This document shows positions 25,827-52,762 of a stretch of DNA of 64,000 nucleotides, piece by piece. A model generated the notes under the pieces. It was not told where the DNA came from and ran no database searches. It saw nothing but the letters and a program-made list of their open reading frames with translations. Origin of the DNA: Vulcanimicrobiota bacterium (GTDB lineage Bacteria; Vulcanimicrobiota; Vulcanimicrobiia; Eremiobacterales; Eremiobacteraceae); NCBI GenBank assembly GCA_963812135.1, contig CAWETU010000001.1, forward strand, positions 896,001 to 960,000, written 5' to 3'. The translations under genes and the position numbers were made by a program. The first letter of the stretch is position 1, and each line of letters begins with the position of its first letter.

Positions 25827-25850
25827 CGGTCGAGTAAACTCGACCGCTAC
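25827..25850 (-). repeat. REP-like palindrome copy 1 (GTAG-CGGTCGAGT-TT-ACTCGACCG), intergenic
   Basis: Perfect 9-bp stem preceded by GTAG; matches six other copies. Confidence 0.85.
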
Positions 25851-28518: not shown

Positions 28519-28723
28519 CCGAGCGGACCGGCTCACCGACTTGATCGCGGCGCTGGGCGAGCATATCGTGGATCTCGAGCGGCGCGTGAGCGCGCTCGAA
28601 TCCGGCACCGCTCCGCCGAAACGGATCGCCGCGTCCGATCTGCGCCGCATCGCGAAGGCGCTGATGCGGTTGTCGCTCGGCGCGCCGGACGACCCCGGCA
28701 CGACGCGCAAGAGGAGCACTTGA
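28511..28723 (+). CDS. Small hypothetical coiled-coil protein
   Basis: 70-aa ORF overlapping both neighbours, consistent with translational coupling. Confidence 0.55.
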   Translation: MPDRADRLTDLIAALGEHIVDLERRVSALESGTAPPKRIAASDLRRIAKALMRLSLGAPDDPGTTRKRST

Positions 28724-30144
28724 TGGGTCTCTTCGTCACCCGTTCGATCGACGCGCTCAACAAAGAGACGGAGGAGATAGAAGGCCCAAGGCTCCGGCGC
28801 GCGCTCGGCCCATGGGCGCTCATCGCGTTCGGTCTGGGCAGCATGGTCGGCGGCGGTATTTTTGCGACGATCGGTCTGGGCGTCCACACCTACGCCGGGC
28901 CGTCGGTCGTGCTCTCATTTATTTTAGCCGGATTAGCGTGTCTCTTCGCGGCGTTCGCGTATGCCGAGATCGCGTCGATGGTACCGGTCGCGGGCAGCGC
29001 GTATACGTATACGTACGCGACCCTCGGCGAGATCGTGGCGTGGGTCGTTGGCTGGAACCTTATCCTTGAGTACGCGCTCTCGGCGGCGCCCGACGCGAAC
29101 ATCCTCTCGCAGAACGCGCAGCAGTGGCTTGCACAGTTCAACATCCACTTACCGCTCTGGGCGACGGCGTTCTACTCGCCCTCGCAACACACGGTGTTCG
29201 ACGTGCTCGCATTCCTGTCGTGCGTGGTGGTCGGGCTGTTGGTCGCCGTCGGCATCCGCGAATCCGCCGGCACGAACTCGGTGCTGGTTTTCCTCAAGAT
29301 GGGCGTGCTTGTGCTGTTCATCATCGTCGCGATTCCGTTTTTCCATCCGGCCAATATGCATCCGTTCGCGACGCATGGCGTGCACGGCATCATCGGTGCG
29401 GCGTTCATCGTGTTCTTCGCGTTCATCGGCTTCGACGCCATCACGACGACGGCCGAAGAGGCGAAGAACCCGCAGCGTGACTTGCCGATGGCGATCCTCG
29501 GAGCGTTGGGCCTGGGTGCGTTATTCTATGTCGCGATCGCGATCACGTTGACGGGCATGGTGCCCGCAACCCACGTGGACGAGAACACGCCGCTCTCCAG
29601 CGCGTGGGTGTCGGTCGGACTCGCCAAGTGGGCGTGGATCATGAACTGGGGCGCGTTTTTCGGCGCAGTGTCGATCATCCTGACGGCGTTCATCGGCCAG
29701 GCCCGGATCTTCTACGTCATGGCGCGCGACGGGCTCTTGCCGAAGAGCGTCGCCAAGATCCACCCGGTGTTCCGGACGCCCGCGCGCATGACGATCATCA
29801 TGAGCGTCGTGGTCGGCGTGCTCGCCGCGATGTTCGATCTGAACACCCTGCTCGATTTCGTCAACATCGGCACGCTCGCTGCGTTCATCTGCGTGTGCAT
29901 CGGCGTCATCATCTTGCGCTACACGCAGCCGGATCGGCCCAGACTCTTCAGATCGCCGTTTGTGCCGGTCTTCCCGGCGCTCGGCGTCATTTTGTCGCTA
30001 ATACTCGTCTTCTACGGAACGGATTGGATCGTCTGGGTGCGCTTCGGCGTGTGGATGCTGCTCGGCTTCGTCGTCTACGCGCTCTACGGGTATCGCCATT
30101 CGGAAGCGCGCAAGCAAGCGCTCGCGGCGGAGCAAACGAAGTAG
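28723..30144 (+). CDS. APC family amino acid permease (cationic amino acid transporter-like)
   Basis: 'LRRALG', 'PVAGSAYTYTY', 'FFAFIGFD...EEAKNPQRD', 'MARDGLLP', 'YGYRHS'. Confidence 0.93.
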   Translation: MGLFVTRSIDALNKETEEIEGPRLRRALGPWALIAFGLGSMVGGGIFATIGLGVHTYAGPSVVLSFILAGLACLFAAFAYAEIASMVPVAGSAYTYTYATLGEIVAWVVGWNLILEYALSAAPDANILSQNAQQWLAQFNIHLPLWATAFYSPSQHTVFDVLAFLSCVVVGLLVAVGIRESAGTNSVLVFLKMGVLVLFIIVAIPFFHPANMHPFATHGVHGIIGAAFIVFFAFIGFDAITTTAEEAKNPQRDLPMAILGALGLGALFYVAIAITLTGMVPATHVDENTPLSSAWVSVGLAKWAWIMNWGAFFGAVSIILTAFIGQARIFYVMARDGLLPKSVAKIHPVFRTPARMTIIMSVVVGVLAAMFDLNTLLDFVNIGTLAAFICVCIGVIILRYTQPDRPRLFRSPFVPVFPALGVILSLILVFYGTDWIVWVRFGVWMLLGFVVYALYGYRHSEARKQALAAEQTK

Positions 30145-30164
30145 CGGTCGAATTTACTCGATCG
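30141..30164 (+). repeat. REP-like palindrome copy 2; its TAG is the permease stop codon
   Basis: gtagcggtcgaatttactcgatcg. Confidence 0.8.
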
Positions 30165-42728: not shown

Positions 42729-43235
42729 CTAGAACCGCAGCTCTTTGCGACCGGCCATCATGACGACGCCGACGATCGCGATGAGCAGGATGAAGGCGGT
42801 GACTTCGAAGGCGAACACGTGCGTCGTCAAGAGCTGCTGGCCGAACGTCGCAACCGTACCGAGGTCGGCGGTCGGCGCCGCGGCCGATTGCGCCCAGGCG
42901 ACGCGCAGGCCCGCGCCCATCACCGCGAGCGCGGCCAAGCCGGCGATGACCGATGGCGCGGTCTGGAACGCGAGGCGGCCCGCGCCGCGCTCGATCGGCT
43001 GCGCCCCGATCGTGAGCAGCGCGATCACGAAGAGGAACAACACGAGGATCGCGCCGGCGTAGATCAAGATCTGCATCATCGCCAAGAACTCGGCGGACAG
43101 CGTGAGGAACAAGACGCCGAGCGCCGTGAAGTTCACGATGAGTCCGACGACCGAATGCACCGGCTGGCGGCTTGCGACCACCCAGATACCCGACGCGATC
43201 AGCACGACCGCGCAGACCCAGAACAAGACGATCAC
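42729..43235 (-). CDS. nuoJ: NADH-quinone oxidoreductase subunit J
   Basis: 'AEFLAMMQILIYAGAILVLFLFVI'; GTG start overlaps the nuoI stop (GTGA). Confidence 0.94.
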   Translation of the reverse strand: MIVLFWVCAVVLIASGIWVVASRQPVHSVVGLIVNFTALGVLFLTLSAEFLAMMQILIYAGAILVLFLFVIALLTIGAQPIERGAGRLAFQTAPSVIAGLAALAVMGAGLRVAWAQSAAAPTADLGTVATFGQQLLTTHVFAFEVTAFILLIAIVGVVMMAGRKELRF

Positions 43236-43813
43236 GTCGCGTCCGCCCCCGAGGTCGCGGAGGTAGCGGTCGGATTTATCCGACCATCCGCGTCGGCCGT
43301 CGCGGTCGAATTTATTTGACCGACTCCCGGATCGGTCTCGACGCCTGACTCGGTGTTCGCCAGATGCTGCGTGTAGGGGTCGCGCACGAGGAGCTTGTCC
43401 TTGCCGAAGACGAGGCGTTCGCGGGTGAAGTCGGCGATGTCGAAGCGCGGCGTCAGCACGATCGCGTCCGTCGGGCACGCCTCTTCGCACCAGCCGCAGA
43501 AGATGCAGCGCAGCATGTCGATCTCGTAGCGGTAGCCGTAGCGCTCGCCCGGCGACACGGGTTTGGCGGGATCGTTCTCCGCGCCGATGACCGTGATGGC
43601 GTTGGCGGGGCACGCGACGGCGCACAGCTCGCAGCCGATGCAACGTTCCATGCCGTCGTCGTATTTGCGCAACTCGTGCACGCCGCGGAAACGCTCCGGA
43701 TGCGGATATGGCTCGCGCGGATAGTCGATCGTCGACTTCTTGCGGAACAGATATTTCAGCGTCGTGCCCAAACCGATGACGATGCCTGCCGCGGCCTTGA
43801 ACGGATTGATCAT
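43232..43813 (-). CDS. nuoI: NADH-quinone oxidoreductase subunit I, with repeat-derived C-terminal tail
   Basis: Two CxxCxxCxxxCP motifs; ATGA overlap with nuoH. Confidence 0.96.
   Translation of the reverse strand: MINPFKAAAGIVIGLGTTLKYLFRKKSTIDYPREPYPHPERFRGVHELRKYDDGMERCIGCELCAVACPANAITVIGAENDPAKPVSPGERYGYRYEIDMLRCIFCGWCEEACPTDAIVLTPRFDIADFTRERLVFGKDKLLVRDPYTQHLANTESGVETDPGVGQINSTATADADGRINPTATSATSGADAT
43263..43322 (+). repeat. Tandem REP-like copies 4 (43263-43285) and 5 (43299-43322) inside the nuoI 3' end
   Basis: gtagcggtcggatttatccgacc and gtcgcggtcgaatttatttgaccg, 36 nt apart. Confidence 0.85.
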
Positions 43814-48978: not shown

Positions 48979-50207
48979 CGGTCGACCTCGCCGAACACCG
49001 GGTCCAAACTGCCGATGATCGCCACCACATCCGCCACGAGGTTGCCCGGCGCCAGCTTGCGCAGCGCTTGGAGGTTGTAGAACGATGGCGGGCGCCAGCG
49101 CACGCGCCACGGCTTGTTGCCGCCTGCGCTCGTGACGTACATCCCGAGCTCGCCGCGCGGGCTCTCCACCGATTGATAGATGTGGCCTTCCGGCACGTTG
49201 AAGCCCGACGACACGAGTTTGAAGTGGTGGATCAGCGCTTCCATCGAGTGTTGGATCTCGGTCTTGGGGGGCGGCAGGATCTTGCGGTCGCTGATCGTGA
49301 CCGGTCCGTCCGGAAATTTTTCGCGCGCTTGCTTGATGATGCGCCACGCTTGATACATCTCGTCGAGCCGCACGACGAAGCGCGAATAGCTGTCGCCGCC
49401 CGTGTGCGTGCAGATGTCGAAATCGTACGTCTCATAACCGCTGTACGGCAGCGCCTTGCGCACGTCGTACGGGATGCCGCTGCCGCGCAGGATCGGTCCG
49501 GTCATGCCCCAATCGATCGCCTCTTGCGGCGTGATCACGCCGACGCCGATCAGACGATCCATGATGATGACGTTCTTCTCGAGGATGGCGCGCATATCGG
49601 TCAGGCGCTCGGGGAAAAGGCCGATGAAGTCGTCCAACTTCGCGAGGAAGCCCTTGGGCACGTCGATGGCGAGGCCGCCGATGCGGAACCAGGACTGATG
49701 CATGCGCGCGCCCGTGACGAATTCCATGATCTCGAGGATGCGCTCGCGCATCTCGAACGCGTACATGAAGATCGATTGCGCGCCGAGATCCATGGCGTGC
49801 GTGCCGAGCTGCACCAAGTGGCTGGCGATGCGCGTGAGCTCGGTGAACATCACGCGCAGCACTTGGGCGCGCGGCGGGATGTTGTCGATGCCGAGCAGCC
49901 GCTCGGCAGCGAGCACGTAACACAGGCTGTTCGAGAGCGGCGCGAGGTAATCGGCGCGATCGACGACGGTGACCGCCTGTTGCCAGAAAAGATTCTCGGC
50001 CTGTTTTTCGATGCCCGTATGAAGGAAGCCGATCTCGGGCTCCGCGGTGACCACCGTCTCGCCGTCGAGCCGCAACATCACCCGCAGCACGCCGTGCGTG
50101 CTCGGATGCTGCGGTCCCATCGACAGGACGAGCGTATCGCGCTCATCGCCCGGCGTGGCCGTCACATCTTTTTCGGCTTCGAACACCGACAGATCGGTGG
50201 TGCTCAT
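48975..50207 (-). CDS. nuoD: NADH-quinone oxidoreductase subunit D
   Basis: '[13 protein letters not shown]', 'ESPRGELG', 'DPVFGEVDR'. Confidence 0.97.
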
Positions 50208-50800
50208 TTGGTCACCACCGGCGGCACGGGACCGGGCAGCCCGCCGGGATTGAAGCGACGGTTGAGCCCGCGCAGCGGATAATCTTTACGCAGCGGATAG
50301 CCTTCCCAATCGTCGGGCATCAGAATCCGTCGCAGGTCCGGATGGCCGTCAAACCGGACGCCGAACAGATCCCACACTTCACGCTCCGGCCAGTTCGCGT
50401 TCGGCCACCGGCTGCACAGCGAGGGCACGACCGGATCGATATCGCTCGGGAAGACTCGCAGCCGGAATCTTTCCGGCACCAATGTAGCGGTCGAATTTAT
50501 TCGACCGGTCGCTTCCTTGCGTTCGGCCCTTTGGATGCGCTCGAGCGGGAACGCGAGGAAATGATACGAGATCTCAAAGCGCGGCGTGAGCGGGAGGTGG
50601 TCGGTGCCGCCGATATCGAGCAAATGGTTGAAGCCTGCCGCGCGCGCCAGGTCGACGGCAGCGAGCAGTCCGGCAGCCAAGATCGCGGCTTCGTCCATGT
50701 CGGCGGCTGAGACCGCCTCGACGAACGACGGGCCGAGCGATTGCGCGAGCTGGGCGAGAAGCGCTGAACTCGCAGCGCGTCCGGCGACGGCCTCAGGCAC
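50204..50800 (-). CDS. nuoC: NADH-quinone oxidoreductase subunit C, with repeat-containing loop
   Basis: '[36 protein letters not shown]'. Confidence 0.95.
50484..50507 (+). repeat. REP-like palindrome copy 6 inside nuoC
   Basis: gtagcggtcgaatttattcgaccg, perfect 9-bp stem; read as GRINSTAT on the coding strand. Confidence 0.88.
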
Positions 50801-51269
50801 GCGCCAGCACGTTGGCCTTGCCGCCGGCTTCGATCTCGCGCCGCAGTTGCATGAGCGCGTAGATCAACGCGTCGGGGCTCGGCGGGCAGCCGGGGACGTA
50901 CACATCGACGGGCAAGATCGAATCGACGCCCGGCAAGATGGCGTAGTTGTCGAAGATGCCGCCGGACGACGCGCATGCGCCCATCGAGATGACCCATTTC
51001 GGATCCGGCATCTGCTCGTAGAGCTGGCGCAGGATGGGCGCCATCTTGTTCGCGACACGCCCGGACACGATCATGAGATCGCTTTGGCGCGGCGACGAGC
51101 GGAAGACCTCCGCGCCGAAGCGCGACGTGTCGTAGCGCGGCGAGACGATGCTCATCATCTCGATCGCGCAGCATGCGAGGCCCATGGTCATCGGCCAGAT
51201 CGCGGACGTCTGCGCCCAGCGCGTGAATTCATCGAGTTTGGTGGTGATGAACGGCTGCTGCGGGCTCAT
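50793..51269 (-). CDS. nuoB: NADH-quinone oxidoreductase subunit B
   Basis: '[10 protein letters not shown]', 'SPRQSD', 'MGACASSGG', 'PGCPP'. Confidence 0.97.
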
Positions 51270-51740: not shown

Positions 51741-51764
51741 CGGTCGAATAAACTCGACCGCTAC
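51741..51764 (-). repeat. REP-like palindrome copy 7; its TAG is the cysK stop codon
   Basis: - strand gtagcggtcgagtttattcgaccg. Confidence 0.85.
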
Positions 51765-52762
51765 AAGAACTCGAGGCCGGTGGCGGTGGGCGTCAAGTGG
51801 TTCTCCGCCAGCCACTCTGCGTTGTACAGACGGGACATCGAGCGCGCCCCGCCGTCGCACAAGATGGTGACGACATTGCTCCCGGGAGGGCAGTCCTTAG
51901 CCACGCGTGCGGCGGCGGTCACATTTACGCCGGACGAGCCACCCAAGAACAATCCTTCCTCACGCAACAGGTAGTGCACCATCTCGACCATCGACCGATC
52001 GTCGACGCGTACCGCGTCATCGGCTCGGGCGCCTTTGAAGTTGTCGGTGATCCGCTTGATGCCGATGCCTTCGGCGATCGACTCGCCGACGACGTCGAGC
52101 ATGCCCGCCGTGATGTAGCAATACAGAGAGGAGCCGAGCGGATCGGCGAGCACGCAGCGGATATTCTGATCGCGCTCTTTCAAGTAGGATGAAACGCCGG
52201 CGAACGTGCCGCCCGTCCCCGCCGCGGCGACGAACGCGGCGATCGATCCGCCGTTGTCCGACCAGATTTCAGGTCCCGTCGTCTCGTGGTGCGCGCGCCG
52301 GTTGGCAGGGTTATTGAACTGGTCGGCCCACAACGCGCCGGGAATCGATTGAGCGATGCGCTGCGCCACGTGATAATAGTTGTTCTCGTCCGCGAACGGC
52401 ACTGAGGGCACGATGCGCACGTCGGCGCCGAGGACGCGCAACAGGTCGAACTTCTCGGACGATTGGTCGTCGGGGATGACGATGATCGTGCGATACCCGC
52501 GCGCGTTGCCCAACAACGCCAGCGCGATCCCGGTGTTGCCAGCCGTGCCTTCGACGATTGTTCCGCCCGGCTTGAGCGTGCCCGCCGCCTCGGCGGATTC
52601 GATGATGAATTTCGCCGCGCGGTCCTTGACCGATCCGCCGGGGTTGAGATGTTCGGCCTTGCCGAGGATGTTGCGGCCAAGCGCGTCGGACAGGCGCGGG
52701 ATGCGGACGAGCGGCGTATCGCCGACCGTTGCGAAGAGATCGCGCTTGATGCCGCCCGCCAT
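51761..52762 (-). CDS. cysK: Cysteine synthase A family PLP enzyme
   Basis: 'KAEHLNPGGSVKDR', 'EGTAGNTG', 'GTGGT', 'GGSSG', 'ILCD'. Confidence 0.88.
   Translation of the reverse strand: MAGGIKRDLFATVGDTPLVRIPRLSDALGRNILGKAEHLNPGGSVKDRAAKFIIESAEAAGTLKPGGTIVEGTAGNTGIALALLGNARGYRTIIVIPDDQSSEKFDLLRVLGADVRIVPSVPFADENNYYHVAQRIAQSIPGALWADQFNNPANRRAHHETTGPEIWSDNGGSIAAFVAAAGTGGTFAGVSSYLKERDQNIRCVLADPLGSSLYCYITAGMLDVVGESIAEGIGIKRITDNFKGARADDAVRVDDRSMVEMVHYLLREEGLFLGGSSGVNVTAAARVAKDCPPGSNVVTILCDGGARSMSRLYNAEWLAENHLTPTATGLEFL

Follow-up and report, generated by a model that had tools for sequence, protein, structure and literature searches.

An in-frame GTAG-type REP in nuoC of a soil bacterium and the turnover of REPs at the loop that holds it

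Palindromic repeats inside genes

Intragenic REPs with a GTAG tag have been described by Di Nocera, De Gregorio and Rocco (2013; PMC3733652), who noted the donation of TAG stop codons by such elements and found single copies read as seven to eight residues inside known proteins. The accessible part of that paper lists about 70 rows for Opitutus terrae, among them FGAM synthase, the E2 component of 2-oxoglutarate dehydrogenase and an entry named 'NADH ubiquinone oxidoreductase subunit'. It records a single instance of a shared site, in recB of two Xanthomonas, and also mentions GTAG families dominated by singletons. The repeat reported here, termed family A, resembles these elements in its unpaired GTAG, its short perfect stem, its 2-nt loop and its hundreds of copies. 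Set against what is available of the same source, family A belongs to another lineage and, going by the descriptions, to another sequence family; it consists mostly of singletons and same-orientation tandems rather than head-to-head dimers, the same loop has been refilled by several families or frames in five genes, and the source genome is without a detected cognate RAYT.

Rickettsia palindromic elements had been named as a precedent in the initial annotation of this DNA. RPE-1 measures about 150 bp, and RPE-4 and RPE-6 are CGTC repeats (PMC10969869, PMC3733652, each as far as accessible). As in family A, palindromic DNA resides in frame inside housekeeping proteins that are left intact; unlike family A, the Rickettsia elements carry a CGTC tag or are far longer and, in the portions of these papers at hand, have no transposase link. 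CGTC repeats of R. conorii are present in NuoC (RC0483, residues 232-240 of 242) and NuoL (PMC3733652, accessible part), but that NuoC copy sits in the C-terminal tail whereas the family-A copy occupies an internal beta-hairpin loop. Nor does the latter resemble RPE-1, a palindrome of about 150 bp with a conserved peptide, as it comprises 24 bp and its peptide shifts with the frame. The Rickettsia elements remain a precedent, but the accessible part of PMC3733652 provides a nearer one in intragenic GTAG REPs, complex I subunits included. Group 3 REPtrons of S. maltophilia and Marinomonas share the GTAG and the perfect short stem with family A; going by the available part of their description (PMC8266576), they pair a RAYT with REPs, whereas no family-A-flanked RAYT was detected here. 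The same text calls the mechanism of REP dissemination poorly understood. Our literature search, which mostly covered work outside subscription journals, retrieved nothing on REPs of Eremiobacterota or on the refilling of one loop by several families. The insertion in nuoC is in itself an unremarkable instance of what has been published. What is distinctive is the evidence that REPs are exchanged rapidly at a single loop of a core respiratory-chain protein, together with the missing transposase.

The REP in nuoC and its family

The window analysed is a stretch of 64,000 nucleotides from the genome of a soil bacterium (G000); G001-G006 denote other members of the genus and G011 the sister genus. 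Homologues bear the source labels Eremiobacteraceae or Eremiobacteraeota, and the host is probably a member of the Eremiobacteraceae. Within nuoC, a 24-bp element matches the repeat consensus without mismatch and is built from a GTAG tag, a perfect 9-bp stem and a TT loop (Table 1). On the minus strand it reads ACC GGT CGA ATA AAT TCG ACC GCT ACA, corresponding to T98 followed by GRINSTAT (residues 99-106), and leaves the open reading frame of 198 residues intact. The hairpin in nuoC is therefore a family-A GTAG REP that is read in frame as GRINSTAT within NuoC, which confirms what the initial annotation had seen. Its hairpin scores z -2.6 against shuffles. At up to three mismatches the 64-kb window contains six matches to the repeat and 100 shuffles contain none; as the reversed genome is likewise devoid of copies, the element does not arise by chance. 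The identity of the host protein is established by PF00329 (Pfam, E 8e-38), by Nqo5 2fug_5 as best match among solved structures (E 2e-24), by a fold match to Nqo5/NDUFS3 and by the position of the gene, which is flanked by nuoB and nuoD within an intact nuo operon, so that the Complex1_30kDa domain, the fold and the gene neighborhood all agree with NuoC/Nqo5/NDUFS3.

Table 1. Coordinates of nuoC, its loop and the family-A REPs in the 64-kb window
Feature	Position	Strand	Basis or remark
Family-A REP, perfect consensus copy	50484..50507	+	Codes for NuoC G99-T106 on the opposite strand
nuoC (30-kDa subunit of complex I, 198 aa)	50204..50800	-	Pfam, structure and fold match, operon place
Hypervariable NuoC loop (residues 82-110), flanked by strands 75-83 and 110-117	50471..50557	-	Alignment and model
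Family-A REP, 2 mismatches, in C-terminal tail of NuoI-position ferredoxin-type subunit (43232-43813, -)	43299..43322	+	In frame, encodes GQINSTAT
Second family-A REP, 3 mismatches, same NuoI tail	43263..43286	+	Encodes GRINPTAT
Family-A REP, GTAG holds TAG stop of gene 51761-52762	51741..51764	-	Repeat match
Family-A REP overlapping 3' end (TAG stop) of predicted gene 28723-30144	30141..30164	+	Repeat match
Family-A REP, intergenic	25827..25850	-	Repeat match

Two REP copies make up the C-terminal tail of NuoI in G000 (window 43232-43340). The same tail has one perfect copy in G006 and none in G005, G001 and G002-G004. The TAG at window 51761-51764, which terminates a gene that we take to be cysteine-synthase-like, is also the stop in six of the seven relatives shown, most of them without a hairpin; only a hairpin stub is present at this place in G005 and a family-C-like hairpin in G006, which hints that REPs may use a (G)TAG already present at a stop codon as their landing point.

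Genome-wide, a weight matrix retrieved 212 copies of family A in G000, whereas the reversed genome yielded none. The consensus of the 212 copies starts with GTAG, and GGAG variants are frequent in G005 and G006. Contigs C3 (97%) and C4 (91-94%) duplicate C1:1.93-1.95 Mb and C5:1-2923 overlaps the end of C1; these are strain haplotigs that slightly inflate the counts, and dropping redundant contigs leaves 208 copies. A search of viral contigs gave no match to the repeat. Family A falls within the limits for GTAG-tagged REPs (stem of 5-13 bp, loop of 2-20 nt, total length of 20-40 bp) and exhibits their unpaired tag, high copy number, lineage restriction and preference for intergenic sites and gene 3' ends with a TAG stop. 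Most copies are single and close pairs are almost exclusively same-orientation tandems; the inverted dimers of REPINs or BIMEs are not a feature of family A in G000.

Placed on a home-made gene model (85% coding) that reproduced the nuo operon, 105 of the 208 copies are intergenic, 36 lie at 3' ends, eight at 5' ends and 59 inside predicted genes, which does not fully agree with the designation 'intergenic repeat' chosen initially. Among the copies over 3' ends, 27 are in sense orientation, with the tag holding the TAG stop, and nine are antisense; intergenic copies between co-oriented genes are sense in 43 and antisense in 30 cases. More than 20 residues separate 38 of the 59 intragenic copies from both protein ends, while N-terminal-proximal ones may be extragenic through start-site error. 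The 38 copies are distributed over 28 genes, and the insertion in nuoC is therefore not a one-off. A set of 38 host open reading frames was scanned against NCBIfam and Pfam, and every one of them matches a family in at least one of these libraries. REP-bearing genes encode ValS, CysS, CarB, PurL, FabH, SelB, NuoI, a RluA-family synthase, protoporphyrinogen oxidase, AccD, PBP1C and 2-oxoglutarate dehydrogenase, the first six of which are full-length and above the NCBIfam cut-offs, i.e. intact. The GRINSTAT frame accounts for 20 of 27 gene-frame cases among internal copies (p 1.2e-7 versus equal use), a preference that probably reflects selection for small polar residues. The frame is indeed free of stops, as the initial annotation had emphasized, but so are four of the six frames, and all four are used.

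Some arrangements of family A deserve mention in their own right. The strands are mixed in G000:C1 from 0 to 1.0 Mb (37 plus, 28 minus) and almost uniform from 1.0 to 2.37 Mb (11 plus, 106 minus), and G005 has a skew of 122 to 28; dnaA is located at C1:306700 and the GC skew of G000 is too weak for defining replichores. Five copies reside in the linker of a fused 2-oxoglutarate dehydrogenase (G000:C1:1750374-1750673), where the usual TAA frame is opened by variants of the TAA-to-CAA type (VEQARPLQ). Three tandem perfect or near-perfect copies at G000:C1:2159925-2160026 are intergenic in the gene model.

Two further families were encountered. Family B is a GTAG REP with an 8-9-bp stem and a 3-nt loop (e.g. 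C1:86262, 604193, 966158), of which G000 has 35 copies, 17 of them inside genes (duplicates included) and there mostly read as V[AGE]PERSSG. Relatives of family B number 37 copies in G001 and are absent from G002-G004 and G011. For family C, the peptide RAQERGT led to a guess at the sequence, and a search of the DNA then turned up 11 copies in G006 and one in G005 at one mismatch from the guessed sequence; a single hairpin in G000 (C1:787541) is related. Because the sequence was derived from that peptide, the peptide match is not independent evidence, while the existence of the family is.

Turnover of REPs at orthologous loops

Allowing one mismatch, family A has 159 copies in G000, 118 in G001, 150 in G005 and 156 in G006, as opposed to one in G002, two in G003 and none in G004 (72% complete). 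Exact-pattern matches amount to 108-143 in four of 32 family genomes and to 0-1 in the other 28, the unpublished G010, G013 and G016 being used just as zeros and loop examples. REP DNA occupies the NuoC loop in exactly the four repeat-rich genomes of the genus and is absent from it in the three poor ones (7/7 agree). G005 (which has an additional half copy) and G006 contain the identical 24-mer, G001 a diverged hairpin. In the Nuo tree, G002-G004 form a clade nested among the repeat-rich genomes with G001 in basal position (support 100), and it follows that the family was either lost there or gained more than once. Copies of families A, B and C are almost lacking in G002-G004, and few GTAG hairpins occur in the 24-48 kb sampled from each, pointing at wholesale loss or at a state in which the repeats were never gained. 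The initial annotation was prepared to give up its reading if repeat-free orthologues carried GRINSTAT or if the segment proved an assembly artefact. GRINSTAT is not found in NuoC of G002-G004 (0-2 copies), and the presence of the identical 24-mer in the same loop of two other species, G005 and G006, speaks against an artefact.

For the loop itself, 116 of 121 NuoC proteins could be parsed (43 closest and 73 more distant homologues). Its median length is 26 residues in the closest and 15 in the more distant set; seven residues, in keeping with the initial description of the loop as 'short and variable', are seen only in distant, Acidobacteria-type NuoC and in the sister genus G011, so that variability but not shortness applies here. 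The loop was already long in the family before the REP, which supplies eight of its 29 residues. An AlphaFold model of NuoC (mean pLDDT 81) predicts a helix (residues 86-97) followed by a coil (98-109; pLDDT about 73-78) that would contain the REP peptide. Judging by this monomer model and the tolerance for indels, the loop probably lies at the surface, as initially proposed.

When a match to a REP translation at six or more residues is demanded, loops of 26 of the 43 closest homologues match a REP, versus one of the 73 distant ones; in controls, seven of 860 shuffled loops matched and two hits fell elsewhere in the 43 proteins. Fifteen loops correspond to family A in antisense, two to family A in sense, four to family B (one weak), three to family C and two to RAYT-flank REPs (both weak), and 17 of the 43 are without a REP match. 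The NuoC hairpin of G001 and loops reading RALERGS and ELRSSAT stay below the threshold and are not counted. A first peptide test with RAYT-flank REPs only had yielded one clear loop match (P0045, 8/8) and two weak ones. The database entries are peptides alone, their REP family is assigned by translation, and the 121 proteins are kin, some of them equal to those of the G genomes; on this basis, the 26 loops appear to represent at least three REP families in both orientations.

The tempo of exchange is evident from proteins that are 97-99% identical to NuoC of the window outside the loop and yet differ inside it, with family A in antisense in P0009, family A in sense in P0020 and family B in P0002. 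A tree calculated without the loop unites antisense-A, sense-A and B loops in the clade around NuoC from the window (support 100), within which off-loop identities are 164/169 and 133/135 residues. Scans of genome and metagenome contigs for related loci returned distant NuoC only (35-54% identity).

Six of the eight GRINSTAT codons end in A or T, though the genes have about 87-92% GC3, and four of them each serve just 3-6% of their amino acid in G000. G000, G005 and G006 nevertheless share all eight codons, while A/T-ending codons in nuo genes are kept between these genomes in only 27-31% of cases; the probability that all eight codons are kept, given that the peptide is kept, is 2-5 x 10^-4. 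It is the DNA that recurs and not the peptide, i.e. a permissive loop is probably colonised repeatedly and the outcome filtered by selection. The initial claim of a GTAG-type REP colonising a variable loop of NuoC in a stop-free frame is supported.

Orthologues of six of the 28 REP-bearing genes were compared at the DNA level in five genomes. For ValS, CysS, CarB and PurL, i.e. four of the six, a REP is present in the same loop and differs in frame or orientation between species. The REP in FabH is read in one frame throughout G000, G005 and G006, and that in SelB is restricted to G000. At the six tested genes no REP was found in G003 and G004; the query used did not retrieve ValS from G004 and G006. 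Shorter, REP-free loops exist in ValS of G003 and FabH of G001. In FabH of G003 and G004, both poor in the repeat, the loop resembles decayed GRINSTAP, which counts against a pure insertion model and fits an old insertion refreshed by conversion.

Mobilisation, competing explanations and significance

RAYT-type HUH genes occur in 17 of the 32 family genomes, with the H-hydrophobic-H motif, an invariant C-terminal tyrosine and inward-facing flanking REPs. GTAG or GGAG hairpins of the same build as family A flank 21 of 24 RAYT loci, but family A itself flanks none of the 24; family-A-like, non-identical hairpins accompany the RAYTs of G009, G018, G015 and G039, and the only RAYT of the genus, that of G001, has a different REP family at its flanks. 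Each family RAYT has a REP variant of its own, and three RAYT loci with different REPs coexist in G014 and in G039. In G000 (98% complete), no RAYT was detected by PF01797 search, by tblastn with 11 family RAYT ORFs or by alignment search, nor by unfiltered hmmsearch of all six frames (best E 0.46), and a RAYT flanked by its own REP, as in a REPtron, was not found for family A in this genome. The two best weak tblastn matches fall in unrelated ORFs and were rejected. The alignment search also failed to find a RAYT in G005 and G006. Repeat architecture and published biochemistry, as far as the available part of PMC8266576 goes, suggest that family A is mobilised by a RAYT (TnpA-REP), an HUH transposase that would act on single-stranded hairpins. 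The failure to detect a RAYT in G000, G005 and G006, or any family-A-flanked RAYT, counts against this mobiliser.

We consider the element in nuoC an ordinary copy of a genus-specific GTAG REP in a loop that is repeatedly refilled, with GRINSTAT as a tolerated passenger, and assign this explanation a probability of roughly 0.7. REPs of family A and its sister families would land across the whole chromosome, and coding copies would survive where the frame stays open and the site is tolerant, as at termini, in linkers and in long loops. The beta-hairpin loop of NuoC would have been filled, eroded and refilled by various families in both orientations. GRINSTAT, presumably translated into assembled complex I, would have no function of its own and is probably neutral, its frame being favored for small polar residues. 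More tentatively, and with the odds rather against it, it is conceivable that new copies are directed to sites that hold a REP or a remnant and overwrite them, across families and orientations, in genomes without detectable RAYT.

A single old insertion in the ancestor of the genus, inherited vertically, continually restored to the consensus by conversion between some 200 copies and decayed in G002-G004, would agree with the nesting of the repeat-poor genomes inside the rich ones, with the G004 NuoC loop (GSIPSSGV) and the G003 and G004 FabH loops that look like decayed GRINSTAT or GRINSTAP, and, through conversion, with the identical rare codons. Taken alone, it accounts neither for opposite orientations and unrelated families among proteins that are 97-99% identical nor for the shorter REP-free loops of ValS in G003 and FabH in G001, and we regard it as unlikely in this form; an old insertion with conversion may operate beside the repeated refilling that we favor. 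Less probable still is that selection on DNA or mRNA structure in the nuo operon (pausing, transcript stability, relief of supercoils) keeps the hairpin. Perfect DNA identity in three species and the overlap of 36 of 208 copies with gene 3' ends would fit, and REPs have been proposed as RNA elements (PMC3733652, accessible part); yet very close relatives differ in the orientation, family and presence of the REP at the same loop, three members of the genus are without a hairpin in nuoC, and the sites occupied coincide with protein-permissive loops. Domestication of GRINSTAT as a functional peptide of complex I might be read from its occurrence, exactly or as a close variant, in 15 of 43 close homologues and from the genome-wide dominance of its frame, but peptide selection would not preserve rare synonymous codons, near-identical NuoC proteins hold unrelated peptides in the loop and GRINSTAT occurs in 20 unrelated proteins, so that this possibility appears very improbable. 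An assembly artefact or chance resemblance has a negligible likelihood: contigs from the nearest-strain run X1 leave 50378-50649 uncovered, but 50259-50832 is bridged by a contig of another study (X2), for which a single 6-base gap is listed next to the REP, two other species share the 24-mer in the same loop and the null searches gave no match. Among the pieces listed for the RNA run X19, none crosses the loop, and neither X1 nor X19 bears on expression.

Intergenic REP sites align badly across species, and a loop between conserved strands offers exact orthologous sites that are filled, refilled or empty. At the NuoC loop, frame, orientation and family of the REP turn over fast, and three nearly complete genomes each hold about 150 young copies while a RAYT is undetected. 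REP sites furthermore mark where complex I, tRNA synthetases, CarB, PurL and FabH naturally tolerate insertions. If directed overwriting were true, the conserved protein flanks would serve as a ruler that records single events of REP transposition or replacement to the base; short peptides would be written into at least one eighth of a family's target loops, those of essential enzymes included, and this writing of peptides would run on the timescale of species.
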